Assembly (NCBI GenBank): GCA_963664875.1
Contig: OY761611.1
Span: 1,216,001 to 1,280,000 of the forward strand
Source: Candidatus Kapaibacterium sp.
Lineage (GTDB): Bacteria; Bacteroidota; Ignavibacteria; Kapaibacteriales; UBA2268
Direction: 5' to 3'
DNA: 64,000 bases
Part shown: piece after piece, positions 37,756 through 50,241 of the stretch
Numbering within the stretch: the stretch's first letter is position 1
Layout of the letters: each line of letters begins with the position of its first letter
Program-made: the position numbers and the translations under genes
The notes under the pieces: model-generated
What the model was told of the DNA's origin: nothing
Database searches by the model: none
Seen by the model: the letters and a program-made list of their open reading frames with translations, nothing else

Positions 37756-38022
37756 ATGAAAGAAGTAGAAATTACAGTTTTAAACAGAGCCGGTTTGCAC
37801 ACTCGACCGGCAGCGACTTTAGTTAAACTTTCTGCTAAATTCAAATGTGATTTGCAACTTATCAGAGACGGTTTTCCTATCAATGCAAAAAGTATCATCG
37901 GAGTAATGACTTTGGCTGCTGAGCAGGGGTGCAAGCTAATGCTGAGAGCTGACGGCAGCGACGAAGAAGACGCAGTTGCGGAAATATCAAAATTATTTGA
38001 GAGTGGATTTGGTGAAATTTAA
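37756..38022 (+). CDS. ptsH: Phosphocarrier protein HPr
   Basis: GLHTRPA (His15) and NAKSIIGVMTL (Ser46) motifs. Confidence 0.96.
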   Translation: MKEVEITVLNRAGLHTRPAATLVKLSAKFKCDLQLIRDGFPINAKSIIGVMTLAAEQGCKLMLRADGSDEEDAVAEISKLFESGFGEI

Positions 38023-38035
38023 GTAGGTAAGCAAA

Positions 38036-39805
38036 GTGGTTGAAGATTTTAACCTAAAAGTTCCATCTGTTCAGCGTTATTCTATTAAAACTTCTGAACA
38101 GAAAATTTATAAAGGTATCCCCTCCTCATCGGGCATAATGATAGGAAGGGCTGTGGTTATTCAACCTGAAAGTATTATTATACCCGAACACACTTTGCAG
38201 GCAGAACAGATTGACGACGAAATTAAACGCTTTAACTCGGCTCTAGATGCTTATAAAAATGACTTGAACAGAGTAATTGCAAATGTAAAAAATGATGAAG
38301 CTAATCTTTCTGCGATAATCGAATCTAATGTACTGATGCTGGAAGATCCTTCTCTGACAATGCCTATAGAAAACAATATCAAGTCAGGATATACAGCTGA
38401 AAGTTCCATTGTTTCTGCTATTGATAAGCTAAAATCATTCTTCAAAACCACTAAAGATGCAATTCTGCAGGAAAGAATCTTTGAATTGGATAATATTAAA
38501 AAAGGGCTTCTTGCTACCCTCCGCAACCAATGTTTTTATTATGCAGTTGCCAAAGACGCAATAGTCATTGCTAAATCACTTACCCCCACTGACGTAATCA
38601 ATTTTAGAGATGCCGGGGTAAAGGCATTTGTTACAGAAATCGGCGGCATTGCCTCTCACTCATCTATTCTGGCTCGAAGTTTTGAACTGCCTGAAGTAAT
38701 CGGTGTTCTTAACTCGACTGACAATATTAAAGACGGAGACTATGTGATAGTAGATGGCTATACCGGTCAGGTTATAGTCAACCCAACATCAAGAATACTT
38801 GAATCATTCCAACGAAAAAAATCTGCAGAAGAGGAACATAAAAGAGAACTCGGCGAAATCATAAACTTAAATACTGAGACTTTAGACGGTAAAAGATGCC
38901 ATCTGTATGCTAATGTAGATTTGCCGGAAGAAGCTCGTGCTGCTTTCCTATGGGGAGCCGAAGGTATAGGACTTTTCCGCTCAGAGTCATTGATAGTAAG
39001 TCTTGGATATTTCCCAAGTGAGCGAGAACAGTTTGATTTCTACAAACAACTTTCGGACACTGCATACCCCAAAGAATTGACAATCAGAGCTTTCGACGTC
39101 GGATCTGACAAATGGGCTGAAGGTTTACCAACCAGAGAAGACAACCCTGCATTAGGTTTTAGGGGGATAAGATTTTTACTCACAAGAAAAGATCTTTTCA
39201 AGATTCAAATACGAGCTATCCTCAGAGCTTCCATAAACAAAAATATACGTTTTATGTTGCCGATGATTTCTTCGGTACAGGAATTGCAGACAGCACACAG
39301 CATCATAGCTGATGTAAAAAATGAACTTGACTTAGCTGATATTGCATACGATACCCAAATGCCAATAGGCATAATGATAGAAACTCCTGCGGCTGTCCTT
39401 CTTGCTGAAGATTTGGCAAAGTATGCTGACTTTTTCAGCATTGGTACTAATGATTTAACTCAATATACTGTCGCTGCTGATAGAACAAATGACCTTGTTT
39501 CCAATGTTTTTGATACTTTCAATCCGGCAGTTATCAGACTCATCAAAATGGCTATAGACGCAGCTAAAGCAAATAATATACCTATCGGAATTTGTGGTGA
39601 ATTTGCAGGACACGCTGCCTCCACAGCAATACTTATTGGTTTAGGTATAGATGAACTTTCGGTAGCCCCTCCTATTTTACTTGAAACTAAAAACAGAATT
39701 CGAAGTTTAAATTATGCTGAAGCAAACGAAATAGCAAATCAGACACTTGCTTGCTCCACCAGCTCTGAAATTAGTAATATTTTGGACAAAATAATCACAG
39801 AATAA
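38036..39805 (+). CDS. ptsI: PEP-protein phosphotransferase (PTS enzyme I)
   Basis: GGIASHSSILARS phospho-His, GIGLFRSE, ENPALGFRGIR-like, MIETPAA, SIGTNDLTQY and ICGE motifs. Confidence 0.96.
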   Translation: MVEDFNLKVPSVQRYSIKTSEQKIYKGIPSSSGIMIGRAVVIQPESIIIPEHTLQAEQIDDEIKRFNSALDAYKNDLNRVIANVKNDEANLSAIIESNVLMLEDPSLTMPIENNIKSGYTAESSIVSAIDKLKSFFKTTKDAILQERIFELDNIKKGLLATLRNQCFYYAVAKDAIVIAKSLTPTDVINFRDAGVKAFVTEIGGIASHSSILARSFELPEVIGVLNSTDNIKDGDYVIVDGYTGQVIVNPTSRILESFQRKKSAEEEHKRELGEIINLNTETLDGKRCHLYANVDLPEEARAAFLWGAEGIGLFRSESLIVSLGYFPSEREQFDFYKQLSDTAYPKELTIRAFDVGSDKWAEGLPTREDNPALGFRGIRFLLTRKDLFKIQIRAILRASINKNIRFMLPMISSVQELQTAHSIIADVKNELDLADIAYDTQMPIGIMIETPAAVLLAEDLAKYADFFSIGTNDLTQYTVAADRTNDLVSNVFDTFNPAVIRLIKMAIDAAKANNIPIGICGEFAGHAASTAILIGLGIDELSVAPPILLETKNRIRSLNYAEANEIANQTLACSTSSEISNILDKIITE

Positions 39806-39840: not shown

Positions 39841-39872
39841 AAAAAAAAGCTGCCCGAAAAAATCCGAGCAGC
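39841..39872 (-). terminator. Intrinsic terminator ending the leftward cytochrome-rhodanese operon
   Basis: On the minus strand GCTGCTCG-loop-CGGGCAGC followed by T8. Confidence 0.75.
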
Positions 39873-39904
39873 CTATAAAAACTTAATATCATAAAGTAAT
39901 GAGC

Positions 39905-40918
39905 TTATTCAGTTACTTTGGGATATTCATAAGATTCTTTAGATTCATCCCAAACAGTAAGTTTACCTGCAACCATTTTGTCGTAAATCATTGCATTTGC
40001 ACCATAAAGAAGTGATTTTGCATTATAACCTAATACCTGAAGGTATGCTGCTATATAAGCACTTGTTTGGCCAGTGTAGCAATAAACAACAACTTCTTTA
40101 TCTGTAGGTAATGTTTTCAAATCGTTGGAGAACATCAAGCTTTCGCCCGGTGTATATTGAATAGCACCTGCAACGTGTCCCGGATCAGTATAATGTGCCA
40201 ATGACCAATAATTTACGATATAGTATTTTGACAAATCAAGGTATAGATTAGCATTCGTAATTTTGGCAACATCGAAGCCTGCAGCTAAAGCAGCTTCTAC
40301 TCTTGCTCTAAGAATTTCAGGACCGGTTTTTTTGCCTGTATTCAAAGTAGGAAGTTTGCCTGCAGCAGCTTTTGGAGTTTCTGTGCTTGTGAAATCTTCG
40401 GCTCTTGAGTTTCCGATGTTTTTGTTCCAAACGTTAACTGCATTTTCTTTATTCCAAGAAGACATACCCCATTTCAAAGAAGAAACTTTTGTGTGTCCCA
40501 TCATTCTCAATAAGGATGCACCATAAGCAGCAGTTTGACCTGAGTAACATACAATTACGATATCAGTATATTGTGATTCGTCTAAGCCTTCAACATGTGT
40601 AAGAAGATTTGCCAACGTTACATTATGTGCACCTTCAATGTGACCGCTTTTGAAGTCAGCTTCATTTCTGATGTCAATTAAATATTGTTTGCCGGGATTT
40701 GTTGACATATCTGTATAAAGAGCTGAAGCACCTTTTACTACCGGGAACTTCAAATTGAGAGTTTCGAGATACTCTGCCAATACCTGTGACTCATTGATAG
40801 TAACAGGATTAGTAGGTGTATCTTCGTCATCATCACTACAAGCTGTGAATGACAAACCTAATGCTAATAACATTAGCATAAATAGGTAATTAGAACGTTT
40901 TAGCATTTCTTTAAACAT
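39905..40918 (-). CDS. Tandem rhodanese-domain (sulfurtransferase) lipoprotein
   Basis: Lipobox FTA-C-SDDDED. Two rhodanese domains (IDIR...GHIEGA and GHVAGA), each with an active-site loop (CYSGQT, CYTGQT). GGAGG RBS. Confidence 0.9.
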   Translation of the reverse strand: MFKEMLKRSNYLFMLMLLALGLSFTACSDDDEDTPTNPVTINESQVLAEYLETLNLKFPVVKGASALYTDMSTNPGKQYLIDIRNEADFKSGHIEGAHNVTLANLLTHVEGLDESQYTDIVIVCYSGQTAAYGASLLRMMGHTKVSSLKWGMSSWNKENAVNVWNKNIGNSRAEDFTSTETPKAAAGKLPTLNTGKKTGPEILRARVEAALAAGFDVAKITNANLYLDLSKYYIVNYWSLAHYTDPGHVAGAIQYTPGESLMFSNDLKTLPTDKEVVVYCYTGQTSAYIAAYLQVLGYNAKSLLYGANAMIYDKMVAGKLTVWDESKESYEYPKVTE

Positions 40919-40960: not shown

Positions 40961-42316
40961 CTATTTAACACCCCACGAAGCAGGCAATTTATCATCAACG
41001 GCAACGTGTTCGGTTGATTTCAATTCCCAATCTTCTTTCAAATCAGATTTGAACAAATACAAATCTTTGTTTCTGAGGCTGTCGCCTTCTTTTATAATAT
41101 GGCACGCATCATAACATGGTTTACCATCAGCAGGTGAACACTGTGCTGTTACTGTTCTGATATTATGAGGCGATGTATAATTATAAATTGGGAAAGCATC
41201 AAAATTAGCAAGTTTAGATTCACCATATTCTTTCCAGCTGTCAGGAGCCATAAGACTTCTTCTTACTAGAACCATTTTGCCCGGTCTGACATCTTGAATC
41301 GGATTGACACCTATTTTGTAGTCAAGATATGAAGGAACTCTTGCACCTTCACCATGAATGTGGCAGCTTCCGCAATTGTTATATGGTTGCGAGTGGCAAA
41401 CATAACAATTCAAATCATTGATATGCATCGAATGGTATTTATTTGCCTTTTCGAGACTACCATGGCAATCTGTACACTGAGGCAAATTAGGATCGTTGTA
41501 ACGGGTTTCATATTTGTTGCCGTCGCCGTGCATTTCTTGAGTGCCATGACATGCAAGACAATCAAATTTCATTTTTTCGAAGTGGATATCAACTTTTGTT
41601 CCCGGTGCCATTCCAAGATATGCGTGACCGCCTCGGCTTGAGTGACAAGCAACACAAGTATTAGTCATATCCGGTTTTCTGACGAAATTGTGTCCGTCTA
41701 TCAAACCGCCACCACCGGCAGGTGGTCTATTTATGTGACATTCGCCGCAGGTACCGTGGCATCTGGCACAGTTGAAATCATAACCGTGTTTCAGGTCATC
41801 AGGAAGCTGGTCAAACTCATGAGAGCCTGCAAGCCCGTATCTTGTTGTTACTTTTCTTTTTTGTCCCCACCCATTAACATGGATGCTGGTTAGAGCATTG
41901 TGCGATTTTGTAGGGTGGCACTCAGCACACTTATCCATAGCAACGTGTGAAGGAGCGCTAATAAAGTCACCAGAGTGAGCTTTAACCTTGTCATTTGTGC
42001 CTTCAACACCATTATGGCAATAAGTACAACCAAGTTTGTAGTGCTTAGATTGTTTGAATTTTTGATAACCCGAACCTCCAAGATAAACTCTGTCATAAGG
42101 TTCGATATGAACAACATCGCCGCTACAACCTCCTGCAACCTCTCCGGTATCAGGTGAATACACTGCTTTTAGCAATTCATAGTCTGCGTGGCAGCTTTCG
42201 CAGGTGCTGAGCACTTCAGTTTTGTCGATTGGTGTAGTATCTTCGTCATCGCTACAAGCTGAAATGACAGAAAGAGATACACTAATCAGTAATAAGAATA
42301 ATAGCCTTTTTTTCAT
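40961..42316 (-). CDS. Multiheme c-type cytochrome lipoprotein (10 CxxCH + 1 CxxxCH)
   Basis: Lipobox ISA-C-SDDED. Motifs CESCH, CTYCH, CAECH, CARCH, CGECH, CVACH, CLACH, CTDCH, CYVCH, CGSCH and CYDACH. Confidence 0.93.
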   Translation of the reverse strand: MKKRLLFLLLISVSLSVISACSDDEDTTPIDKTEVLSTCESCHADYELLKAVYSPDTGEVAGGCSGDVVHIEPYDRVYLGGSGYQKFKQSKHYKLGCTYCHNGVEGTNDKVKAHSGDFISAPSHVAMDKCAECHPTKSHNALTSIHVNGWGQKRKVTTRYGLAGSHEFDQLPDDLKHGYDFNCARCHGTCGECHINRPPAGGGGLIDGHNFVRKPDMTNTCVACHSSRGGHAYLGMAPGTKVDIHFEKMKFDCLACHGTQEMHGDGNKYETRYNDPNLPQCTDCHGSLEKANKYHSMHINDLNCYVCHSQPYNNCGSCHIHGEGARVPSYLDYKIGVNPIQDVRPGKMVLVRRSLMAPDSWKEYGESKLANFDAFPIYNYTSPHNIRTVTAQCSPADGKPCYDACHIIKEGDSLRNKDLYLFKSDLKEDWELKSTEHVAVDDKLPASWGVK

Positions 42317-42347
42317 GGCGTACTCCAATATATATTACCCATGTGAA

Positions 42348-44456
42348 TTATTTCGGGTTATGACAATCTGAGCAATATTGATTCAAAATATCTTTATCCA
42401 AACCGCCAGGGTGAATAAATGTGTTTGCATTTAAACTATCCGCCAAAGGTTTTCCGGCAACAAGTTTGGTAGTAATAGTATGGCATAAATTGCAATCATT
42501 GCTCAAAACCTCTCCTGCTTTATTCACGTGATTACCGTCATGGCATCTGAAACACCCTTTGCTGTATAGGTGCGATTCGTGATTAGCATAAACTTTCCAA
42601 TTTGCATTCATCTCAGGGAAATAGTTTTTGAGGTAAATTGCATTCAATTCAATTATAGCCAGATTTAATTCATCTCGCATATCTATAGGAACGTTTGGAT
42701 AATTCTCTTTATAATATTTAGTCAAAGCATTTTTGATTTCCTCAATCGAATTTTCTCTTGATTTCAAAGATTCTAATACTCTAACGCCAATTTTTTTGAT
42801 ATTCGGCAATTTTGAATTTATTTTGTCATAAGCCATATAGGCATTTATTGTCTGATATGGGTCGTTATAAACATGCGACGGCCTATTGTGGCAGTCTATA
42901 CAGTCAAATTTCTTAAATTGAGCAGTTGGTGATATTTGCTTGCCTGTCAATCTATAGACTGTTTCTTTTCCGTCAGTTTTTGATATAGCTTTTACTAAAG
43001 GAATCGCATCATCCGGGTTATCTGGTTCGATATAAAGAATATCTTTGCTTATTCCCATGTGATAGTGAATGCCGGAACTGATACCGATTTCTCTGTTACC
43101 ACCACCTACTTTCATAGTTAGTGTGATACTATAGTGAGTATTTTCTTCGTCAGAGAGGAAATAATCACGCTTGAAAGATTTTTGTTCGTAATATTTTTCT
43201 TCCCAGTGGCATTTTTTACATGCTTCGGGAGACGGTCTCAAATATGTTGTAGGAGCTCCTAATGGCTTTTCATAACTGTCAGTAATGGTCATATATACCT
43301 GTGGCAAGCCGCTAAGTCTGTTTTGATCCCAAAACGAACTTTTTTCAGTGAAGTGGCAATCCACACATGCAATCTTAGAGTGCGGAGAAGATGCGTAAGT
43401 AACACTCACGGGTTCCATAACTTCGTGGCAGGCTTCCATACAAAAGCTGTTAGATTCTGTATATTCGTAGGCTTTCCTGCTACCGTAAATAGTAGTAATA
43501 ACAATAGTAAATGACACAACAGAAATGAGAAAGAAAAATAGCTGATGTTTTGCTCTGTTAAAGTCTAACAGAGGCAATCTGCGTTCTATATTTTTTTGTT
43601 TGTTTCTGTTTTCGTTTAGCCAACCAATCAGGATTACTATCAATCCCAAGAATAGAACCGAAGGAATGATAATGTAAGTAATCAGCCTTGTATAAGGATT
43701 GTTTGTCCCTACTAAAAACTCAAAAATTAAGAGTAGAACTATAAACACTAAGCTGAGCATAGTAATAAATGCACCGGATAGGGAGATTGGATTAGTAAGT
43801 AAGCTTGGTAATTTATCTTCATGTTCTTCTTCGTGATGATCTTCGTGTACTACGTGATAACCTGTAAACATAGCTATAAAGTGTTCGGAAGGAGTATTAC
43901 CTGTCGTTGCAAGATAGATATGAACAAACATAAATATCGTTAGGAAAAATCCCATTACAGTGTGTAGCATTGCCATAGGCCATACACCACCCATTCCGAA
44001 TATCTCATCAGGAGCCAGCTCCGGAAACATTAGAAACCAACCGGAAGCAATAATTACAGGAAATCCTATAAATACTATAAAGAAATAAGCCATCTGCTGC
44101 ATAGGATTAAACTTTTCTTTTTCACTAGCATGATAAGGATGCGGTTCGCCGAGGAAAATACCAAAAGTGTAAAACCTTGCCTGCTTTATAGAGCGAGTAA
44201 TAAAATTTCTCAAAGATGGCAAATAGTGCTTTATATTGCCGGAACTTATGTTTAAGATAAAATAAAAAAGATATAGAAAAGATAAGGCTATACCAGAAGT
44301 ATTGTGAGCAATCATAGCCACTTCGAAAGAAAAAAGAAAATCTCCGCTGCCGGCATAGTGCAAACTCATACCTGAAACGATAAGCACTACAAAGATTAGT
44401 GCGTTTAGCCAATGCCAAAGTCTGAGCCAAATCGGATATAAATATAACTTTTTCAT
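42348..44456 (-). CDS. Fusion protein: di-heme cytochrome b (CbcB/PhsC-like) + ImcH-like NapC/NirT heptaheme cytochrome
   Basis: N-terminal RLWHWLNA...SLHY, AHN, FNPMQQ, LHT and HIYLATTG cytochrome b motifs. His/Glu linker, three TM helices, then YTESNSFCMEACHEVM, CVDCH, CKKCHW, GIHYH, CIDCHNRPSH, GCFRCHDG, CNLCH and CSDCH. Confidence 0.88.
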   Translation of the reverse strand: MKKLYLYPIWLRLWHWLNALIFVVLIVSGMSLHYAGSGDFLFSFEVAMIAHNTSGIALSFLYLFYFILNISSGNIKHYLPSLRNFITRSIKQARFYTFGIFLGEPHPYHASEKEKFNPMQQMAYFFIVFIGFPVIIASGWFLMFPELAPDEIFGMGGVWPMAMLHTVMGFFLTIFMFVHIYLATTGNTPSEHFIAMFTGYHVVHEDHHEEEHEDKLPSLLTNPISLSGAFITMLSLVFIVLLLIFEFLVGTNNPYTRLITYIIIPSVLFLGLIVILIGWLNENRNKQKNIERRLPLLDFNRAKHQLFFFLISVVSFTIVITTIYGSRKAYEYTESNSFCMEACHEVMEPVSVTYASSPHSKIACVDCHFTEKSSFWDQNRLSGLPQVYMTITDSYEKPLGAPTTYLRPSPEACKKCHWEEKYYEQKSFKRDYFLSDEENTHYSITLTMKVGGGNREIGISSGIHYHMGISKDILYIEPDNPDDAIPLVKAISKTDGKETVYRLTGKQISPTAQFKKFDCIDCHNRPSHVYNDPYQTINAYMAYDKINSKLPNIKKIGVRVLESLKSRENSIEEIKNALTKYYKENYPNVPIDMRDELNLAIIELNAIYLKNYFPEMNANWKVYANHESHLYSKGCFRCHDGNHVNKAGEVLSNDCNLCHTITTKLVAGKPLADSLNANTFIHPGGLDKDILNQYCSDCHNPK

Positions 44457-44457
44457 C

Positions 44458-45909
44458 TTATTTTCTTCCTGAACGTTTGAAATACCATCTTAAAAAGCTG
44501 TGAAGAACCAAAAATACAGCAGTAATGCTTAGAAGCATAATAAAGCCGGTATCTAAGATTGCATTCCTTGTGGTCCCTACAACATAAGCGTCGCTTAAAA
44601 TTGTACCGTTTATAAAACCAAATTTTTCTCTTGATTTTTCTTTTTCGTGTTTATATAGCTTTGTCATCAATATTGAATTTTTTGAGTGACACTCTTCGCA
44701 CTTTTGTACAGTTTTTTCAGGGGGTAAAATGTCGTGAGACATGTGCGGTTGCGAAAAAGATGAGTGACAGTCTGTGCATCTGACAGTCTCCCAGTGTATG
44801 GACATTTTAGGGAGCCATTCGTGAGCTTCCTGCACTGTACTTACATCATATTTATCCATCATTGCTTTGTCAACGTGGCAGACCACACAATACACCATCT
44901 GATTTTCGATAAATGTTGTTTTATTTATATGATTAGCAGTGAAAACAGATGCCTTGATGTCCGGAATTTTTGCTATATCATGTTCACCATGGCAAAATGT
45001 ACAAGCCGGCGAATCCGGATTGCCTTTAGCGAGTGCTTTGCCGTGTATGCTCATTTCATATTCGTGAGCAACTGAGATATGGCATTTACCACATACTTTA
45101 GATATTTTTGACTTATGAACTGTCGAATTTGGAGAAGAAGATTTTTGCAAATCATGAGTACCGTGGCAATCAATACATGTAGCTGCATTTTGATTGCCTG
45201 ACATCAACTGGCTACCATGCACACTTTTTTCGTAATTCACTAAGGATTTTGAGTGTGATGTCTGATTTTCTGACTTGATATGGCAGCTGATGCAAAGCTT
45301 TTCCTGATTGATTTTCAGCTGCAAAGCATTTTTTTCACTTGCAGGCGTAATAGCACTTCTGTGGCACGAAATACATGTCGGAGACCTATGACTGTTTTCA
45401 ACAAATTTGTGCTCACTGGTATTATGCAATTTTACCACATCTTCATGGCAAGCACCACAGTAAGCTACAGATTTGGAAGCATGCATTGGTGATTCTTCAG
45501 ATTTTGGACTAACAACCTGATGAGTCCCGTGACAAGCCTTGCAATCATTTAGCTTAGCATAATCTTTGTGATTTTTATTTTGCATAGCCGCATGAAAAAG
45601 ATGTTTTTTAGCAGCATCTGTATGGCATGATGCACAATCGATTGGCTTTATATTTTCAGCATGCGGGACATCCTCTGCATTGAAGCCTTTGTGGCAATCA
45701 ACACATTTTAACTTACTATGCGGAGAATTAGCCAAATCAGCAGCTTTCACATAAAGCGAAATCTCTTTGCCATTTTTCTCCATAGAAATGTCTTTATCCG
45801 AGTGACATTCCATACATAGTTCTTCAGCAGAAGCAGATAGTCCCAAGCCGACAACTAAAATCAGGGCTGTAAACATCAGGAGAAAATAATTTTTCATGAC
45901 ATCATCCAT
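44458..45909 (-). CDS. 13-heme periplasmic cytochrome c with C-terminal membrane anchor (CbcA-like)
   Basis: Signal peptide, 13 CxxCH motifs and C-terminal YVVGTTRNAILD-TM-LHSFLR. Stop lies 1 nt before the cytochrome b fusion start. Start may be 45897. Confidence 0.9.
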   Translation of the reverse strand: MDDVMKNYFLLMFTALILVVGLGLSASAEELCMECHSDKDISMEKNGKEISLYVKAADLANSPHSKLKCVDCHKGFNAEDVPHAENIKPIDCASCHTDAAKKHLFHAAMQNKNHKDYAKLNDCKACHGTHQVVSPKSEESPMHASKSVAYCGACHEDVVKLHNTSEHKFVENSHRSPTCISCHRSAITPASEKNALQLKINQEKLCISCHIKSENQTSHSKSLVNYEKSVHGSQLMSGNQNAATCIDCHGTHDLQKSSSPNSTVHKSKISKVCGKCHISVAHEYEMSIHGKALAKGNPDSPACTFCHGEHDIAKIPDIKASVFTANHINKTTFIENQMVYCVVCHVDKAMMDKYDVSTVQEAHEWLPKMSIHWETVRCTDCHSSFSQPHMSHDILPPEKTVQKCEECHSKNSILMTKLYKHEKEKSREKFGFINGTILSDAYVVGTTRNAILDTGFIMLLSITAVFLVLHSFLRWYFKRSGRK

Positions 45910-46364: not shown

Positions 46365-46958
46365 ATGAAATTGAAAAAAGTGATTTTCGGATTTATCGCT
46401 GTTGCCACCATGGCAGGTGTTGTTTCTACAATATCGCTAACTTCGGTAACAAGCAAAGAAAGCCCTAAGTACATCGGTGCAGACAAATGTAAAATGTGCC
46501 ACAAAGGCGAAAAAAAAGGTGACCAGTTTAAAATATGGTCAGAAGGTGCACACGCAAAAGCTTATGCTACTTTGGCAAGTGCAGAATCTAAAGCTATCGC
46601 TGCAAAAATGGGAATAGCTGACCCTCAAAAAGCTCCTGAGTGTTTGAAATGCCACGTAACAGCCTACAATGTAGATGCTTCTCTCAAAGAAAAAACATTG
46701 AAATTAGAAGAAGGTGTTTCGTGCGAATCTTGCCACGGTCCCGGTTCTGAGTATAAAAATATGACTGTGATGAAAGACATTAGTTTAGGTAAAATCGATG
46801 GTGCTGACTTAGGCTTCAAACAGCAAACTGCAGAACTTTGCAAGCAGTGCCACAACGAAGAATCACCTACATACAAAGAATTCAAATTTGAAGAAAGAGT
46901 TAAAGAAATTGCACATCCGATGCCGGATGCTTATAAAAAGGAAAAAGGATATAAATAA
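46365..46958 (+). CDS. Tetraheme cytochrome c (cytochrome c554-like family)
   Basis: Signal peptide. YIGADKCKMCH, W..GAHAKAY.TL, CLKCH, EGVSCESCHGPGS.Y and CKQCHNEESP motifs. AGGAGG RBS. Confidence 0.9.
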   Translation: MKLKKVIFGFIAVATMAGVVSTISLTSVTSKESPKYIGADKCKMCHKGEKKGDQFKIWSEGAHAKAYATLASAESKAIAAKMGIADPQKAPECLKCHVTAYNVDASLKEKTLKLEEGVSCESCHGPGSEYKNMTVMKDISLGKIDGADLGFKQQTAELCKQCHNEESPTYKEFKFEERVKEIAHPMPDAYKKEKGYK

Positions 46959-47016
46959 GATATTGATTGTATGAAGCAATCATACTTTTTTTCCATAACT
47001 ATTTTTGGAGGTCATA

Positions 47017-48033
47017 GTGAAAAAAACTATCCAAATGCTTTCGATGCTACTTGTGCTGGTAGTATTGGGAGGAATGTTCTCAGCTTGCGAAGGTCCGGAA
47101 GGTCCGGAAGGTCCGGCTGGGAAAACAGGACAAAATGCTCTTGCAACATGTGACAATTGTCACGACGTTAGTACTGATTTGAAAGCAAGAATGCTTCAGT
47201 ACGCAAAATCTACTCACGCGTTAGGTGGTAACTTCGAAAGAAGTACTGCTGATTGTGCTCCATGTCACACTCACGAAGGTTTCGTAAATGTATTAGCAAC
47301 CGGCGAAACTGGTGATATTAGTAATCCAACTCCTCCGGGTTGCCGTACTTGTCATAATATTCATACTACTTATACAGTAGATGATTATGCATTGACTGCT
47401 ACAGCTCCTGTAGAATTAGCGGTGGGTAGCAAAACATTCGACAAAGGTAAAAGTAATTTGTGTGCAAATTGCCACCAATCACGTCCTTTCACTTTGCCTG
47501 AATTCAATGATTCAGAATTTTCTATCACAAGTTCTAGATTTGGTCCTCACCATGGTCCTCAATCTAATTTAATTATGGCTGCCGGTTTAGTTGAAATCCC
47601 TGGCAACGCATCATATCCATCTACAAACCCACATGCGGGTACTGGTGATGGTTGCGTTGATTGCCACATGGCAAATGCTTACGGCACTCAGGCAGGTGGA
47701 CATACAATGTCTGTTGCTTATGATTACCATGGAACAATTGAACCAAATACTGCTGGCTGTATTTCTTGTCACACTGACGAAACAGAACTTATTACTAAAC
47801 TTGAAGACTACAAAACAGAAATGGATGGTTTAATGACTCAAATTTCTGAAATATTAGTAGAAAAAGGTCTTTTGACTGCTACAGGAAGTGCAGTAGCAGG
47901 CAAAACAACAGGTAAATTAGCTTCTGCTCTTCTTAACTATAGAACTATAGCAATAGAAGATAGATCTTATGGTGTTCACAATCCGAAATATGTAAGAGCT
48001 CTACTCAAAAACACATTAGAGTCTCTACAGTAA
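47017..48033 (+). CDS. Hexaheme c-type cytochrome lipoprotein with short collagen-like tether
   Basis: GGAGG RBS with GTG start, lipobox FSA-C, then EGPEGPEGPAGKTG. Motifs CDNCH, CAPCH, CRTCH, CANCH, CVDCH, CISCH and a C-terminal GVHNPKY. Confidence 0.9.
   Translation: MKKTIQMLSMLLVLVVLGGMFSACEGPEGPEGPAGKTGQNALATCDNCHDVSTDLKARMLQYAKSTHALGGNFERSTADCAPCHTHEGFVNVLATGETGDISNPTPPGCRTCHNIHTTYTVDDYALTATAPVELAVGSKTFDKGKSNLCANCHQSRPFTLPEFNDSEFSITSSRFGPHHGPQSNLIMAAGLVEIPGNASYPSTNPHAGTGDGCVDCHMANAYGTQAGGHTMSVAYDYHGTIEPNTAGCISCHTDETELITKLEDYKTEMDGLMTQISEILVEKGLLTATGSAVAGKTTGKLASALLNYRTIAIEDRSYGVHNPKYVRALLKNTLESLQ
47089..47115 (+). repeat. Perfect 9-bp tandem repeat (GAAGGTCCG)x3
   Basis: Direct reading of the sequence. 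Encodes (EGP)3 immediately after the lipidated Cys. Confidence 0.9.
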
Positions 48034-48038
48034 CATAA

Positions 48039-48112
48039 ATGGTCTGCCCTCCGCTGCTAAGCCTAAAGGAGCACTTAGGCTTAGCACCCGGGGCAGTACC
48101 ATATTTTTTTTT
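48039..48112 (+). terminator. Long intra-operon stem-loop (terminator or mRNA stabiliser)
   Basis: ATGGT-CTGCCC...TGCTAAGCCTAA-loop-TTAGGCTTAGCA...GGGCAG-TACCAT followed by T9. Confidence 0.7.
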
Positions 48113-48130
48113 ATTCAGGAGCAAGCTATT

Positions 48131-49345
48131 ATGAGGAAATACTTATTACTCTTATGTTTTTTTACGGTAGCATATTTTGCTCAGGCAGATTTAACTTACA
48201 AAGCAAAAGTTACTTCCGGGCTTTTCTCAGGAGCTCAATTTTACAATAGAGAAAACCTCGAAGACAGATTGCTTAATCCTAACGAAGATGCTTACAGATG
48301 GTACAACCGTATAGCACTACAAAGCACTTATGACAGATTTTCTGTTAACTTTAATGCTATTCGTAGTGATTATCTTGACTTTGACGGAGTCAAACCTTAC
48401 TTCCCTCGAAATGAAATTAACGAAACTAAAATGTATCAGGCTTATGCTCAGTATAAGTTCGATGACGGTAATATCAAATTAGGTAGAGTAATGCCGTTTT
48501 CAAGATGGTATTTTAGCTCTGTCGATGGCGGTTCTTTTGATTATCAGGTCAATTCCAATTTTTCTGTAAGTGCTTTTGCAGGTAGTGATGTAGATTACGG
48601 TCTTTTTGTTGATGATGACAACAGAAAAGCCGTTGGCTACACAGAAATTGCCTATCGCGAGCAAAATTATGGCGGTAAAGTAAAATACTTGTACGCTAAC
48701 GAAGAATCTAAACTTGGAACTGATTTGTTTTTTAGAACAGATAAGCATCGTGTAGCTGCAAACATTGGTTATGATGCGACTAACTCTCGCCTATTTGATG
48801 CAGGTTTAGGATATTTTGCTTACTTAACACCTGAGCTTAATGTTTCTGCTAATTACTTACGTACAATTCCTATCAGCTGGAGCTATAAATTCTATTCCGA
48901 ATATATAGACAGAGTTCAGATTGGAATCAGCTATGATTTAGGTAAAAACTATACAGTATCTTTAAAACAGATGCTTGGTCTTGCTGATGGTAATTCAAAC
49001 TATTTGACTTATCTCTATCTCACTCATAAATACTTTTATGTAGGTTTAAATTATTTATCAGGCGATATGGAAGCAGAACGCTTAGCTATCACTTGTGGCG
49101 GACAGTATTCCCCTATGGATAACTTAATGCTTCAAGCCGGTATAGCTTCTGTAGATCATATGTTTGATAATTTTTACTATAAAGACGAACAAACATATTC
49201 TTCGTACTTCAAAGTAAGATACAAAGCACTGGACTATTTAAACCTTGCTGCCTACGCAAACTACTACCACCAAAATTCTATGTTTGATAACAAATGGCGT
49301 GGCGGTCTGACTGCCCAACTTATACTCGCAGGAGGTGGGAAATGA
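48131..49345 (+). CDS. Putative outer-membrane beta-barrel (porin of a porin-cytochrome complex)
   Basis: Signal peptide (AQA-D), Tyr/Phe/Gly-rich alternating beta-strands, no heme motifs, lies between two multiheme genes and overlaps the next gene (ATGA). Confidence 0.75.
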   Translation: MRKYLLLLCFFTVAYFAQADLTYKAKVTSGLFSGAQFYNRENLEDRLLNPNEDAYRWYNRIALQSTYDRFSVNFNAIRSDYLDFDGVKPYFPRNEINETKMYQAYAQYKFDDGNIKLGRVMPFSRWYFSSVDGGSFDYQVNSNFSVSAFAGSDVDYGLFVDDDNRKAVGYTEIAYREQNYGGKVKYLYANEESKLGTDLFFRTDKHRVAANIGYDATNSRLFDAGLGYFAYLTPELNVSANYLRTIPISWSYKFYSEYIDRVQIGISYDLGKNYTVSLKQMLGLADGNSNYLTYLYLTHKYFYVGLNYLSGDMEAERLAITCGGQYSPMDNLMLQAGIASVDHMFDNFYYKDEQTYSSYFKVRYKALDYLNLAAYANYYHQNSMFDNKWRGGLTAQLILAGGGK

Positions 49346-50241
49346 AAATTTTTCAGATAATCATTAGCTCAGTCGCTCTGCTATCTGTGGTACTTATGGG
49401 CATATATAGCTCAAACATGACTGCTGACGATACAGTAAAAAGCTGGGAGTCGGATTTGATTTTTTCTCATGCAAAACATGTGATTGAAAACGAACTCGCC
49501 TGCGAAACTTGCCATGCTGATGCTGCAAATTCGGAAACAGGTAATGACGATTTGCTTCCTAAGGAAGAAACTTGTATCACTTGCCATGAGAAAACTGAAG
49601 AATCTTGTGTGATGTGTCATACTAATCCGAAAAATCCAAAAATCATGCCTCGGATTACTGACTATTCTCAAAAGTTTAGCCATAAACAACACATAGACAA
49701 AGGTGCTGACTGTAACTCATGCCATACTGATATTGCTAAAAAAGACAAGGTTGCTAAACCTAACTTACCTGATATGCACAAATGTATGACTTGCCACGAA
49801 ACTCCGGAAGAAACTAAAGAATGTTATATCTGTCATGATCAGGATTATAATCTAATTCCAAAAGATCATACTGAAATGTGGCTCGATAATCACTCTAATT
49901 TTGTGGAAGCGGAAGGCAACAAATGCCAAACTTGCCATCAGGAACAGTATTGTATGGATTGCCATAGAGGCGAAAACCTCTTTAACAATTCTCACCCTCC
50001 TCATTTTATGGCTACTCACTCTATGAGCTATCTAATGAGAGAGTCTAACTGCCAATCATGCCACGAAGGTCTGGAATCTTGTAGAGAATGCCACATGGAA
50101 ATAAACTATGTCATTCCTCCTGATCATATGCCATCTACCTGGATCGGCGAACATATGTTCTCCGGAAAAATCAATGCTGATAAGTGCGTTGTTTGTCACA
50201 GGAAAGATGAGCCTCGTTGTATGGATTGTCATACTAAATAA
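49342..50241 (+). CDS. Dodecaheme cytochrome c (c3/c7-type repeats)
   Basis: GGAGGT RBS, N-terminal hydrophobic segment, FSH..H c7-type motifs and 12 CxxCH in 299 aa. Confidence 0.92.
   Translation: MKIFQIIISSVALLSVVLMGIYSSNMTADDTVKSWESDLIFSHAKHVIENELACETCHADAANSETGNDDLLPKEETCITCHEKTEESCVMCHTNPKNPKIMPRITDYSQKFSHKQHIDKGADCNSCHTDIAKKDKVAKPNLPDMHKCMTCHETPEETKECYICHDQDYNLIPKDHTEMWLDNHSNFVEAEGNKCQTCHQEQYCMDCHRGENLFNNSHPPHFMATHSMSYLMRESNCQSCHEGLESCRECHMEINYVIPPDHMPSTWIGEHMFSGKINADKCVVCHRKDEPRCMDCHTK

Follow-up and report, generated by a model that had tools for sequence, protein, structure and literature searches.

A cytochrome b of the CbcB type joined to an ImcH-family heptahaem cytochrome in one polypeptide of Candidatus Kapaibacterium

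Introduction

Can two kinds of quinol-oxidizing cytochrome that are usually kept apart be carried by a single polypeptide, and what would such a chain do? In Geobacter, ImcH, CbcL and CbcBA are regarded as parallel ways out of the menaquinone pool, each under its own regulation and each matched to its own range of acceptor potential, ImcH being required where the extracellular acceptor has a high potential. The question is raised by a gene in a 64,000-nucleotide stretch of Candidatus Kapaibacterium sp. (the window; contig OY761611.1, positions 1,216,001 to 1,280,000). The original prediction placed a cytochrome b domain and a heptahaem cytochrome in one frame there, and knew of no described fusion of this type. 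Here, we examine whether the fusion is intact, what its modules are, how widely it occurs and how it may work.

Results

An intact seven-helix protein

The fusion gene starts with ATG and has no internal stop in the open reading frame listing of the window (Table 1), so that the predicted single frame stands as an intact 702-residue chain with neither stop nor frameshift in the linker. A four-helix di-haem cytochrome b is followed by a cytoplasmic linker, three further helices and a periplasmic domain with seven c haems. AlphaFold2 models the chain with a mean pLDDT of 88.7 and a pTM of 0.74, with the cytochrome b helices at residues 9-33, 44-72, 118-143 and 158-182 and the ImcH-type helices at 223-249, 254-287 and 302-333. 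A hydropathy scan recovers the same helices, with helix 2 weaker. Lysine and arginine together number 2, 7 and 7 in the segments predicted to be cytoplasmic, against zero in each of the three periplasmic loops; loop 250-253 has none and loop 280-303 has seven. The fusion is a seven-helix protein with its N-terminus inside and its haem c domain outside. A Foldseek search of the PDB is headed by FdnI (1kqf_C), with a TM-score on target of 0.69, and NrfH (2j7a_C), with 0.59.

Table 1. Features of the fusion locus, in window coordinates
Feature	Position	Strand	Basis
Whole fusion ORF, cytochrome b::ImcH, 702 aa	42348..44456	-	ORF list, Pfam, NCBIfam, motif scan, AlphaFold2
Four-helix cytochrome b domain, residues 1-205	43842..44456	-	PF01292, FdnI alignment, Foldseek
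Cytoplasmic linker, residues ~201-222, His/Glu-rich	43791..43856	-	In-frame translation
Three ImcH-type transmembrane helices, residues 223-333	43458..43790	-	AlphaFold2 helices, GSU3259 helix match
Periplasmic heptahaem domain, residues 334-702, first part NrfH-like	42351..43457	-	Motif scan, NrfH sequence and fold matches
Haem-1 motif CMEACHEVM, residues 339-347; presumed P-side quinol site with E334, R380, Q386, Y395	43416..43442	-	ImcH spacing, conservation
13-haem c-type cytochrome, 483 aa, signal peptide, one C-terminal anchor helix, CbcA-like	44458..45909	-	Motif and hydrophobicity scan
Lipoprotein-type multihaem cytochrome, 455 aa, 10 CXXCH and 1 CX3CH, operon gene 3	40961..42328	-	ORF list, Pfam, motif scan
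Lipoprotein with two rhodanese domains (PF00581, two stretches), operon gene 4	39905..40918	-	Pfam
Terminator-like hairpin closing the four-gene operon, 12-pair stem then T run	39847..39874	-	Hairpin scan
Divergent cluster: 4-haem c554-like, 6-haem lipoprotein-type, 404-aa haem-less porin-like and 12-haem cytochrome genes	46365..50241	+	Pfam, motif scan

The His/Glu sequence YHVVHEDHHEEEHEDK is read in frame at ~43811-43860, where it had been predicted. Across 57 fused proteins the linker measures 27-72 residues and is variable and of low complexity, acidic and then basic. Its His/Glu richness is confined to the window's clade (4 of the 57), and the idea of a conserved metal site in the linker was dropped on that count.

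A single frame of this kind could be an artefact, with two adjoining genes merged by misassembly or by loss of a stop or frameshift through sequencing error. Genome G253 has one in-frame TAA just past the cytochrome b in the equivalent frame. The junction check proposed with the original prediction, run on contigs, gave a split outcome: contigs X1 and X2, from runs of two studies, cross the junction with no differences, although they may be source data for the assembly, and no contig from runs X6 and X7 bridges the linker. Run X6 leaves a 255-letter loose end at 43841 and another loose end at 43329. We take these gaps as contig breakage at the low-complexity linker. Against an artefact, the window's genome is a 3.83-Mb single contig, the topology of the fused chain is self-consistent, and independent assemblies supply 56 clusters with a full-length fusion. 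A related strain (X7), at about 95% identity, differs by 36 substitutions and no indels; 32 of the substitutions are third-position changes, and of the 35 altered codons 31 are synonymous, including across the junction. Purifying selection acts on the fusion family, which is conserved.

The cytochrome b domain

Pfam PF01292 (Ni_hydr_CYTB) matches residues 7-199 with 82.8 bits against a cut-off of 30.1. With four modelled helices and four histidine ligands, this bears out the prediction of a four-helix di-haem b domain in the first ~200 residues. FdnI of Escherichia coli formate dehydrogenase-N (1kqf) is the closest solved fold for this half, and both its haem ligands and its quinone-site residues align. 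In the profile alignment, FdnI His18, His57, His155 and His169 pair with the four histidines of the domain, and His15/His179 are assigned to the cytoplasmic-side haem and His51/His165 to the periplasmic-side haem. These ligands are retained in 55, 57, 57 and 57 of the 57 fused sequences. A KFNPxQQ segment, conserved at 90% or above, pairs with KYNAGQK of FdnI. The quinone site of FdnI lies on the cytoplasmic side, next to the inner b haem, and relatives of the FdnI/HyaC type are quinone reductases.

In NCBIfam, the N-terminal domain comes closest to PhsC, the thiosulfate reductase cytochrome b model (NF011582), at 171.3 bits, which falls short of the curated cut-off of 204. CbcB homologues are typically annotated in just this way, according to a preprint on CbcBA (10.1101/2021.04.15.440034). 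The predicted CbcB likeness is upheld by the PF01292 match, by this PhsC-like annotation and by the position of the domain directly behind an anchored multihaem cytochrome, as CbcB lies behind CbcA. In that preprint's description of GSU0593/GSU0594, the basis of the comparison here, CbcB is likewise a four-helix, di-haem, 'thiosulfate reductase-like' protein. The same text counts three b-haem histidines in CbcB, whereas the fusion b domain holds all four itself; it also differs from CbcB in running on into ImcH.

The ImcH-type half

The predicted three helices, NapC/NirT domain, CxxxCHxxM motif and six CxxCH motifs were all found. The NapC/NirT match (PF03264, Cytochrom_NNT, residues 305-396) is marginal at 24.3 bits against a cut-off of 24.1. 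The NrfH model TIGR03153 matches residues 311-418 (E 9e-11) with 42 bits against a cut-off of 134.2, which rules out an NrfH equivalog, although NrfH of Desulfovibrio vulgaris (2j7a) is the closest solved fold for the c half. The haem c motifs comprise one CX3CH at residue 339 (CMEACH, followed by EVM) and CXXCH at 364, 413, 519, 635, 655 and 695, and none of the seven varies across the 57 fused sequences.

With the first motif counted from 340, these positions less 208 become 132, 156, 205, 311, 427, 447 and 487, against 132, 156, 205, 311, 428, 448 and 486 in Geobacter ImcH (GSU3259). With the same offset, the three helices coincide with GSU3259 helices 13-35, 45-67 and 100-122. The comparison with GSU3259 is one of tabulated motif, helix and residue positions; sequence identities come from homologues in Ignavibacterium and Melioribacter. 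The ImcH half is 41% identical to a 498-residue Ignavibacterium album protein (P0155) over residues 5-494 of the latter, and 34% identical (E 6e-112) to an unfused Melioribacter sp. homologue.

In NrfH the quinone site is periplasmic, at c-haem 1. M347, R380 and Q386 of the fusion pair with the Met of the NrfH CXXCHxM motif, a Lys and an Asp in the profile alignment. A preprint on ImcH (10.1101/2023.05.03.539133) names E127, H137, K173, Q179 and Y188 around haem 1, and E334, H344, R380, Q386 and Y395 of the fusion stand at the same spacing (offsets -10, 0, +36, +42 and +51). Among the 57 fused sequences these surroundings comprise D/E in 57, K in 53 and R in 4, Q in 56, Y in 48 and F in 7, and M347 in 57. 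The quinol-site alignment suggested earlier thus finds the residues kept, with Arg380 in the window's protein where ImcH has K173.

Architecture, haem spacing, the named residues and sequence identity together place the C-terminal 495 residues (208-702) in the ImcH family, as predicted. Shared with GSU3259 are the three helices, the CX3CH plus six CXXCH motifs, a length of ~495 residues, NrfH-like first four haems and the haem-1 E/D, K/R, Q and Y. GSU3259 is a stand-alone, monocistronic protein of 507 residues. Here the same unit makes up the C-terminal portion of a longer chain, follows a 205-residue cytochrome b and shares its operon with the gene for a 13-haem cytochrome. The fusion also falls outside the length of the stand-alone family (495-519 residues).

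Stand-alone relatives are widespread. A search with 16 unfused ImcH-like proteins confirmed 591 of 599 stretches, spread over many phyla, and most Ignavibacteria carry an unfused ImcH. Levar 2014 (PMC4251993) and Zhong and Shi 2018 (PMC6295460) list ImcH homologues in Melioribacter/Ignavibacteriae, and all three Ignavibacteriae homologues in Table S3 of the latter are unfused, at 488-498 residues. No further ImcH homologue was found in the window's genome, in which the fusion is the sole copy.

The earlier observation is therefore confirmed: a complete heptahaem cytochrome of the ImcH family follows a CbcB/FdnI-type cytochrome b on the same chain, with a cytoplasmic linker between them. Judged by alignment, both modules retain the cofactor ligands and quinone-site residues of their solved relatives.

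The operon and its neighbours

One nucleotide separates the 13-haem gene from the fusion gene (TAA-G-ATG). This upstream gene was absent from the original prediction. Its product carries 13 CXXCH motifs, and its residues 9-27 and 451-469 are hydrophobic. The motifs, together with His470 and Arg474 of the anchor helix, are retained in 114 of 114 aligned homologues, except that motif 1 has its first Cys in 109 of 114. The gene lies directly upstream of a cytochrome b in all five related loci examined, and the C-terminal half of the protein (~200-475) aligns with fusions of six to seven haems to a cytochrome b. CbcA, as described in 10.1101/2021.04.15.440034, has the same upstream position, the same gene order of c then b and a C-terminal anchor helix bearing a histidine; it has seven haems, against 13 here. 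Among the neighbouring genes covered by the Pfam scan, none was recognized as a BccR-type sigma-54 regulator such as the one next to CbcBA.

The operon encodes no hydrogenase or formate dehydrogenase that could act as donor, nor did its genes show a molybdopterin or FeS subunit. FdnI and NrfH are separate subunits of different enzymes that work with catalytic partners, FdnGH and NrfA, and the locus has no gene for a catalytic subunit of either kind. Downstream genes vary among fused loci, so the acceptor may vary too: the two-rhodanese lipoprotein is not conserved at other fused loci, and the 455-residue cytochrome does not lie beside the fusion in genomes G232 and G298.

The divergent cluster is a putative porin-cytochrome-like outer-membrane conduit. 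The nearest Atlas clusters of its porin-like protein include 'Porin family protein' (0.98), which serves only as a lead. A pcc cluster has been reported in Ignavibacterium album.

Distribution and origin of the fusion

Full-length fusions are carried by 56 of the 89 clusters listed (90% identity), which makes this a family and not a one-off. The proposed search for PF01292 and PF03264 in one protein thus leads to a recurring architecture, but one that is rare among genomes: the intact fusion is present in 3 of 301 species genomes of the class and in none of 400 others of the phylum.

The main cytochrome b::ImcH family appears to have arisen once, in a tree built with FastTree only, with long-branch warnings and with 46 unfused rows hand-picked from thousands of matches. 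Fragments P0057, P0058 and P0061 were excluded from alignments A2 and A3 and from the tree. P0262, in which the b part is only 20% identical to the window's, is an independent fusion of the same kind. Genome G253 was considered as the ancestral two-gene state and set aside, its lone TAA lying within an otherwise continuous 724-codon frame.

The modules recur in other arrangements. In genome G211 all three are separate genes of one operon. A cytochrome b is also fused behind 13 haems (P0473, P0474) or seven (P0077-P0089, P0351), and these c::b fusions share 37-51% identity with the b domain of the fusion in the window. The preprint 10.1101/2021.04.15.440034 notes cbcB-cbcA gene fusions in Chloroflexi. 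These and the c::b fusions found here have the same type of b domain, yet their CbcA-like partner is N-terminal and no ImcH follows at the C-terminus. No published description of a cytochrome b::ImcH fusion was found in the literature, in agreement with the original prediction. The locus combines known parts.

Discussion

Our preferred reading, to which we assign a probability of about 0.6, is a single menaquinol:cytochrome c oxidoreductase that combines CbcBA-like and ImcH functions, with quinone sites on the N side and the P side, and that feeds the adjacent porin-cytochrome-like cluster. The 702-residue and 13-haem products would form one inner-membrane complex with 2 b and 20 c haems. By analogy with FdnH on FdnI, and with the arrangement put forward for CbcA on CbcB, the 13-haem protein is proposed to dock onto the cytochrome b through its anchor helix. 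At the ImcH site, menaquinol would be oxidized with release of both protons and electrons to the periplasm, a route that is electroneutral and would be favoured at high acceptor potential. At the cytochrome b site, quinol would be taken from the cytoplasmic side and its electrons driven outward across the membrane; the membrane potential would assist this route and make it useful at low acceptor potential. Both quinol sites may feed a shared periplasmic haem network, from which electrons would move on to the downstream cytochrome and into the adjacent porin-cytochrome-like conduit. The fusion would fix 1:1 assembly of two routes that are separate enzymes in Geobacter. How the two quinone sites would cooperate is our inference, and the Q-loop, bifurcation-like and wide-potential-range roles put forward with the original prediction are hypotheses of the same standing. 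For the putative quinone site of CbcB-type proteins, the ImcH preprint (10.1101/2023.05.03.539133) goes no further than to call N-side oxidation 'more likely'.

Several features speak against the preferred reading: the CbcA-like partner has 13 haems where CbcA has seven, no sigma-54 regulator turned up among the scanned neighbours, the genes downstream vary among fused loci, and the long, variable, low-complexity linker would suit a loose tether no less than a tight complex. The two modules could then be tethered but independent, with the fusion merely co-expressing or co-localizing CbcBA-like and ImcH-like quinol oxidases that exchange no electrons. The variation in linker length and the separate genes of G211 are consistent with this, as is the prevalence of unfused ImcH in Ignavibacteria. 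However, even a 27-residue membrane tether would hold two helix bundles adjacent, and the AlphaFold2 model reaches a pTM of 0.74 over the whole chain. Two independent b::ImcH fusions, together with the 13-haem::cytochrome b fusions, suggest selection for physical assembly beyond co-expression. We consider independence unlikely, though it is the alternative that survives best.

Electrons could also enter through the b module. An FdnHI-like 13-haem/b unit would reduce menaquinone on the cytoplasmic side from a periplasmic or extracellular donor, and the ImcH site would re-oxidize the quinol periplasmically; this would cover both energy conservation between two periplasmic partners and inward running during oxidation of Fe(II) or of an electrode. 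The b domain resembles the quinone reductases FdnI and HyaC in sequence and fold, the two quinone sites face opposite sides of the membrane, and Zhong and Shi argue that the b-type CbcL/MtrH/MtoC family is bidirectional. On the other side, ImcH homologues have so far been implicated only in quinol oxidation, and the operon includes neither a hydrogenase nor a formate dehydrogenase. We regard such uptake as distinctly doubtful. Doubtful as well is a self-contained redox loop, in which electrons from a low-potential outside donor would pass through the 13 haems and the b haems to menaquinone on the cytoplasmic side, and from there through the ImcH site to a higher-potential extracellular acceptor with protons released outside, or else a potential-gated switch between an energy-conserving and an energy-spending exit. 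If a redox loop operates, the fusion would be a compact proton-motive device between two partners outside the cytoplasm, with quinol travelling only a few nanometres.

The best NCBIfam match and the rhodanese lipoprotein that ends the operon may instead mark a chain reducing thiosulfate, polysulfide or tetrathionate, with the 455-residue cytochrome as terminal reductase. The PhsC score lies under its cut-off, however, and the operon shows no molybdopterin or FeS subunit. The fused loci in G232 and G298 have neither the rhodanese protein nor the 455-residue cytochrome, and 'thiosulfate reductase' is a routine mislabel of CbcB homologues (10.1101/2021.04.15.440034). Sulfur respiration is thus highly improbable here. 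To the artefact discussed above, in view of the recurrence and codon pattern, we give practically no credence.

Close single-chain parallels are CbcL (GSU0274), MtrH and MtoC, which likewise combine c haems with a PF01292-like b membrane domain for exchange with the quinol/quinone pool. In CbcL, the c domain of nine haems comes first and is followed by six helices, without a quinol site of the NapC/NirT type. In contrast, the fusion begins with the b domain, has four helices in it and a c domain of another kind, and adds a second quinol module with its own anchor.

Two kinds of membrane cytochrome that Geobacter keeps separate are encoded by one gene here, which suggests that in this lineage they operate as a single device that exports respiratory electrons from the cell membrane. 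The modules recur unfused, in c::b fusions and in b::ImcH fusions, and a second b::ImcH fusion has an independent origin; this pattern provides 'Rosetta stone' evidence that they can act together physically. The fusion is a natural complex of fixed stoichiometry in which quinol binding by CbcB-type proteins could be located. It also allows one to ask whether cytoplasmic-side and periplasmic-side routes swap electrons, and how energy yield is traded against acceptor potential. Relatives of the window's lineage occur in wastewater metagenomes, in small shares. For this group of Ignavibacteria, in which the fusion is the only copy of ImcH, it flags candidates for extracellular respiration.

Domain architecture of the fusion

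The 702-aa protein is almost certainly a genuine cytochrome b::ImcH fusion (probability roughly 0.95). Its parts all come from known families, arranged here in a new variation. PF01292 (Ni_hydr_CYTB) matches residues 7-199 (Pfam, 82.8 bits against a cut-off of 30.1) and PF03264, the NapC/NirT N-terminal region, matches residues 305-396 (24.3 bits against 24.1). The top NCBIfam model for the N-terminal part is PhsC (171.3 bits, under the cut-off of 204), and residues 311-418 match the NrfH model (E 9e-11, far under its cut-off). Haem motifs comprise CMEACH at 339 and CXXCH at 364, 413, 519, 635, 655 and 695. The AlphaFold2 model, with 113 aligned sequences (mean pLDDT 88.7, pTM 0.74), places four helices, then three helices, then a mixed periplasmic domain. 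Foldseek comparison of the whole chain with the PDB put FdnI (1kqf_C) at the top, followed by NrfH (2j7a_C); none of the hits reached E 0.001, as expected when both domains are small. The original prediction, a cytochrome b domain joined through a linker to three helices and a seven-haem NapC/NirT domain, was therefore correct in its domains, haem motifs and coordinates, and the reading frame is continuous through the linker.

Coordinates of the fusion gene, its surroundings and related loci
Feature	Position	Strand	Description
Fusion ORF	42348..44456	-	702 aa, ATG start, no internal stops
13-haem cytochrome	44458-45909	-	483 aa
Operon-closing hairpin	39874-39847	-	12-pair stem and T run
Divergent cluster	46365-50241	+	4-haem c554-like, 6-haem, 404-aa and 12-haem proteins
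Downstream ORF pair	37756-39805	+	88 aa and 589 aa
G253 fusion frame	L098:8001-10172		Single in-frame TAA
G211 locus	L099:3891-10491		Four consecutive same-strand genes
G232 recombinase	L096:10224-11123		Directly 3' of fusion gene
G298 ORF	L097:3826-4722		Same place and size as G232 recombinase

Levar et al. (PMC4251993) define ImcH as a protein with at most three helices, a region resembling NapC/NirT, and seven haem motifs that begin with a CX3CH. GSU3259, the 507-aa ImcH of Geobacter sulfurreducens, is listed with motifs at 132, 156, 205, 311, 428, 448 and 486 and helices at 13-35, 45-67 and 100-122 (Zhong and Shi, PMC6295460). Subtracting 208 from the fusion positions yields motifs at 132, 156, 205, 311, 427, 447 and 487 and helices at about 15-41, 46-79 and 94-125, a comparison based on the published GSU3259 positions. 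This match therefore sets the ImcH-like part at residues 208-702 (495 aa). An ImcH preprint (10.1101/2023.05.03.539133) assigns His137 and Gln179 to haem 1 as its ligands, with E127, K173 and Y188 conserved close by; E334, H344, R380, Q386 and Y395 of the window's protein occur at identical offsets. Across 57 fused sequences these columns hold D/E in 57, H in 57, K in 53 and R in 4, Q in 56, and Y in 48 and F in 7. Profile alignment with solved NrfH pairs M347 with the Met of CXXCHxM, R380 with a Lys and Q386 with an Asp near haem 1. The ImcH half shares 41% identity with a 498-aa protein of Ignavibacterium album and 34% with a Melioribacter sp. homologue (E 6e-112). Haem spacing, helix positions, haem-1 residues and these identities to unfused homologues bear out its predicted homology to ImcH.

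Profile comparison matches the fused family to HyaC (E 4.8e-10) and to FdnI (E 1.6e-4). His15, His51, His165 and His179 fall on FdnI His18, His57, His155 and His169, its haem ligands in the FdnGHI structure, and are kept in 55, 57, 57 and 57 of the 57 fused sequences, with His33 kept in 56. The loop segment KFNPxQQ is aligned with KYNAGQK of FdnI, which lines the cytoplasmic-side quinone site there. The fusion contains two complete modules, each with the cofactor ligands and quinone-site residues of its solved relative, and the two predicted quinone sites lie on opposite membrane faces. Lysines plus arginines number 2, 7 and 7 in the N-terminus and the two predicted cytoplasmic loops, and 0 in each of the three loops on the periplasmic side. 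The chain is therefore N-in, with seven helices and the haem c domain outside, and the fusion is topologically sound.

Integrity of the junction

Among 5.8 billion proteins, a word-indexed search listed 89 clusters. Full-length proteins of 701-761 aa with 96-100% query coverage make up 56 of these (P0001-P0056, among them the window's own); the sources that are named are Ignavibacteria, Kapabacteria, Chloroherpetonaceae or Bacteroidota. The window genome is a single contig of 3.83 Mb. Contigs from runs of two studies, possibly the source of the window DNA, cover 43300-44300 with no differences. The frame is open across the junction, and the linker shows no stop or frameshift of the kind that would have refuted the fusion. 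Weighing the other way, no contig bridges the linker in the wastewater run or in run X6, where contigs stop at 43329 and 43837-43841 and leave loose ends, 165 and 255 letters long, that do not resemble the window, the longer at 43841; one of these breaks falls inside the low-complexity linker.

The wastewater-run relative, about 95% identical, differs by 36 substitutions and no insertions or deletions. Third codon positions take 32 of the 36 substitutions, and 31 of 35 changed codons are synonymous, the remaining four being conservative. The fusion is under purifying selection. In the related genome G253, the fusion frame carries one in-frame TAA (conserved segment directly past the fourth helix), and this copy may be broken, truly split or mis-sequenced.

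Distribution and origin

A full-text literature search turned up no account of a cytochrome b::ImcH fusion, in line with the original prediction; bioRxiv supplements, for example the ImcH alignment figure S2, could hold one. The Ignavibacteriae homologues in the table of Zhong and Shi (PMC6295460) are all unfused. Public annotation names the fusion proteins either 'cytochrome b/b6 domain-containing protein' or 'thiosulfate reductase cytochrome b subunit / nitrate-TMAO reductase-like tetraheme cytochrome c subunit'.

An exhaustive HMMER search against 1.84 billion representatives (50% identity) yielded 3188 matches with E-values up to 0.001. Of the 150 that were listed, P0044 (734 aa) is the single one to match over 1-700. 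PF01292 and PF03264 also occur together in P0262 (771 aa), whose cytochrome b is 20% identical to the window's and whose ImcH part lies among unfused proteins in the tree. In the class sample, 169 of 301 genomes have a match and unfused ImcH (query 213-702) is widespread. The intact fusion occurs in three (G232, G298 and the window genome G000), G253 adding its stop-bearing copy; all four belong to one family. Only G000 itself passes E 1e-140 among 401 phylum-wide genomes, and it has no second ImcH homologue.

The ImcH-part FastTree comprises 105 rows (57 fused, 46 hand-picked unfused, and G253 and G211). All 56 main-family fusions cluster together (support 91). Joining them in turn are G253 (98), the copy in the G211 operon and the unfused proteins of I. 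album type. The 'fused' label needs two changes on this tree, which carries long-branch warnings, and the simplest reading would be one fusion origin plus one independent fusion. Other arrangements include 6-7-haem::cytochrome b proteins (of 14 checked, 13 with seven CXXCH and one with six) and the 13-haem::cytochrome b proteins P0473 and P0474. P0314 (645 aa) has a Macro domain ahead of an ImcH-like protein, and P0216 and P0229 (939/940 aa) carry long C-terminal paired-CXXCH haem-repeat extensions after ImcH.

The 13-haem partner and gene neighbourhood

The 13-haem cytochrome is the constant neighbour of the fusion. It precedes the fusion in G232 and G298 and the TAA-bearing frame in G253, and in the window the two genes join as TAA-G-ATG. 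It has 13 CXXCH motifs, all kept among 114 aligned homologues apart from the first Cys of motif 1 (109 of 114), and one C-terminal helix; where this anchor helix meets the cytoplasmic side, His470 and Arg474 are invariant in 114/114 and may be part of a b-haem or quinone site. The available portion of the CbcBA preprint (10.1101/2021.04.15.440034) describes a cytochrome b of four helices, frequently labelled 'thiosulfate reductase', together with a cytochrome c whose C-terminal helix serves as its anchor and may supply a His, with cbcA before cbcB. It reports homologous clusters in Bacteroidetes and Calditrichaeota and cbcB-cbcA fusions in Chloroflexi, and that portion makes no mention of ImcH fusions. 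The window shares with CbcBA, as described there, the logic of a four-helix cytochrome b preceded by a C-terminally anchored cytochrome c.

In G211 the order of genes is ImcH, 13-haem cytochrome, free-standing cytochrome b (55% identical) and a 935-aa CbcL-type protein with 19 haems; all three Geobacter-type quinol oxidase families are neighbours here. A second G253 locus (L100) has the 13-haem gene and cytochrome b only. The G232 gene 3' of the fusion encodes a tyrosine recombinase, assigned to the phage integrase family by a Pfam scan that covered this copy only.

The window's operon runs from the 13-haem cytochrome through the fusion and a 455-aa lipoprotein-type cytochrome (10 CXXCH and one CX3CH) to a two-domain rhodanese lipoprotein. 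The ORF pair just downstream, on the opposite strand, looks by eye like phosphotransferase-system HPr and enzyme I. The divergent cluster resembles a porin-cytochrome outer-membrane conduit. Its 404-aa protein has no Pfam match, its nearest Atlas clusters include 'Porin family protein', and its final two ORFs share roughly 50 nt. Shi et al. (PMC4245776) report a porin-cytochrome cluster in I. album.

Proposed function

The fusion could be a tether without coupling, or could serve a redox loop or inward electron flow. Sulfur-compound respiration is a further alternative; the window's rhodanese and 455-aa cytochrome are absent beside the fusion in G232 and G298. We favour a two-site quinol oxidase for extracellular acceptors, which is probably its role, with both sites putative. 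A single complex would oxidise menaquinol either at the ImcH site on the periplasmic face or at the cytochrome b site on the cytoplasmic face. The ImcH preprint (10.1101/2023.05.03.539133) treats the periplasmic route as electroneutral and N-side oxidation as 'more likely' for CbcL and CbcBA. Membrane potential would assist the N-side route, and the periplasmic haems would receive electrons from both routes and pass them to an outer-membrane conduit.
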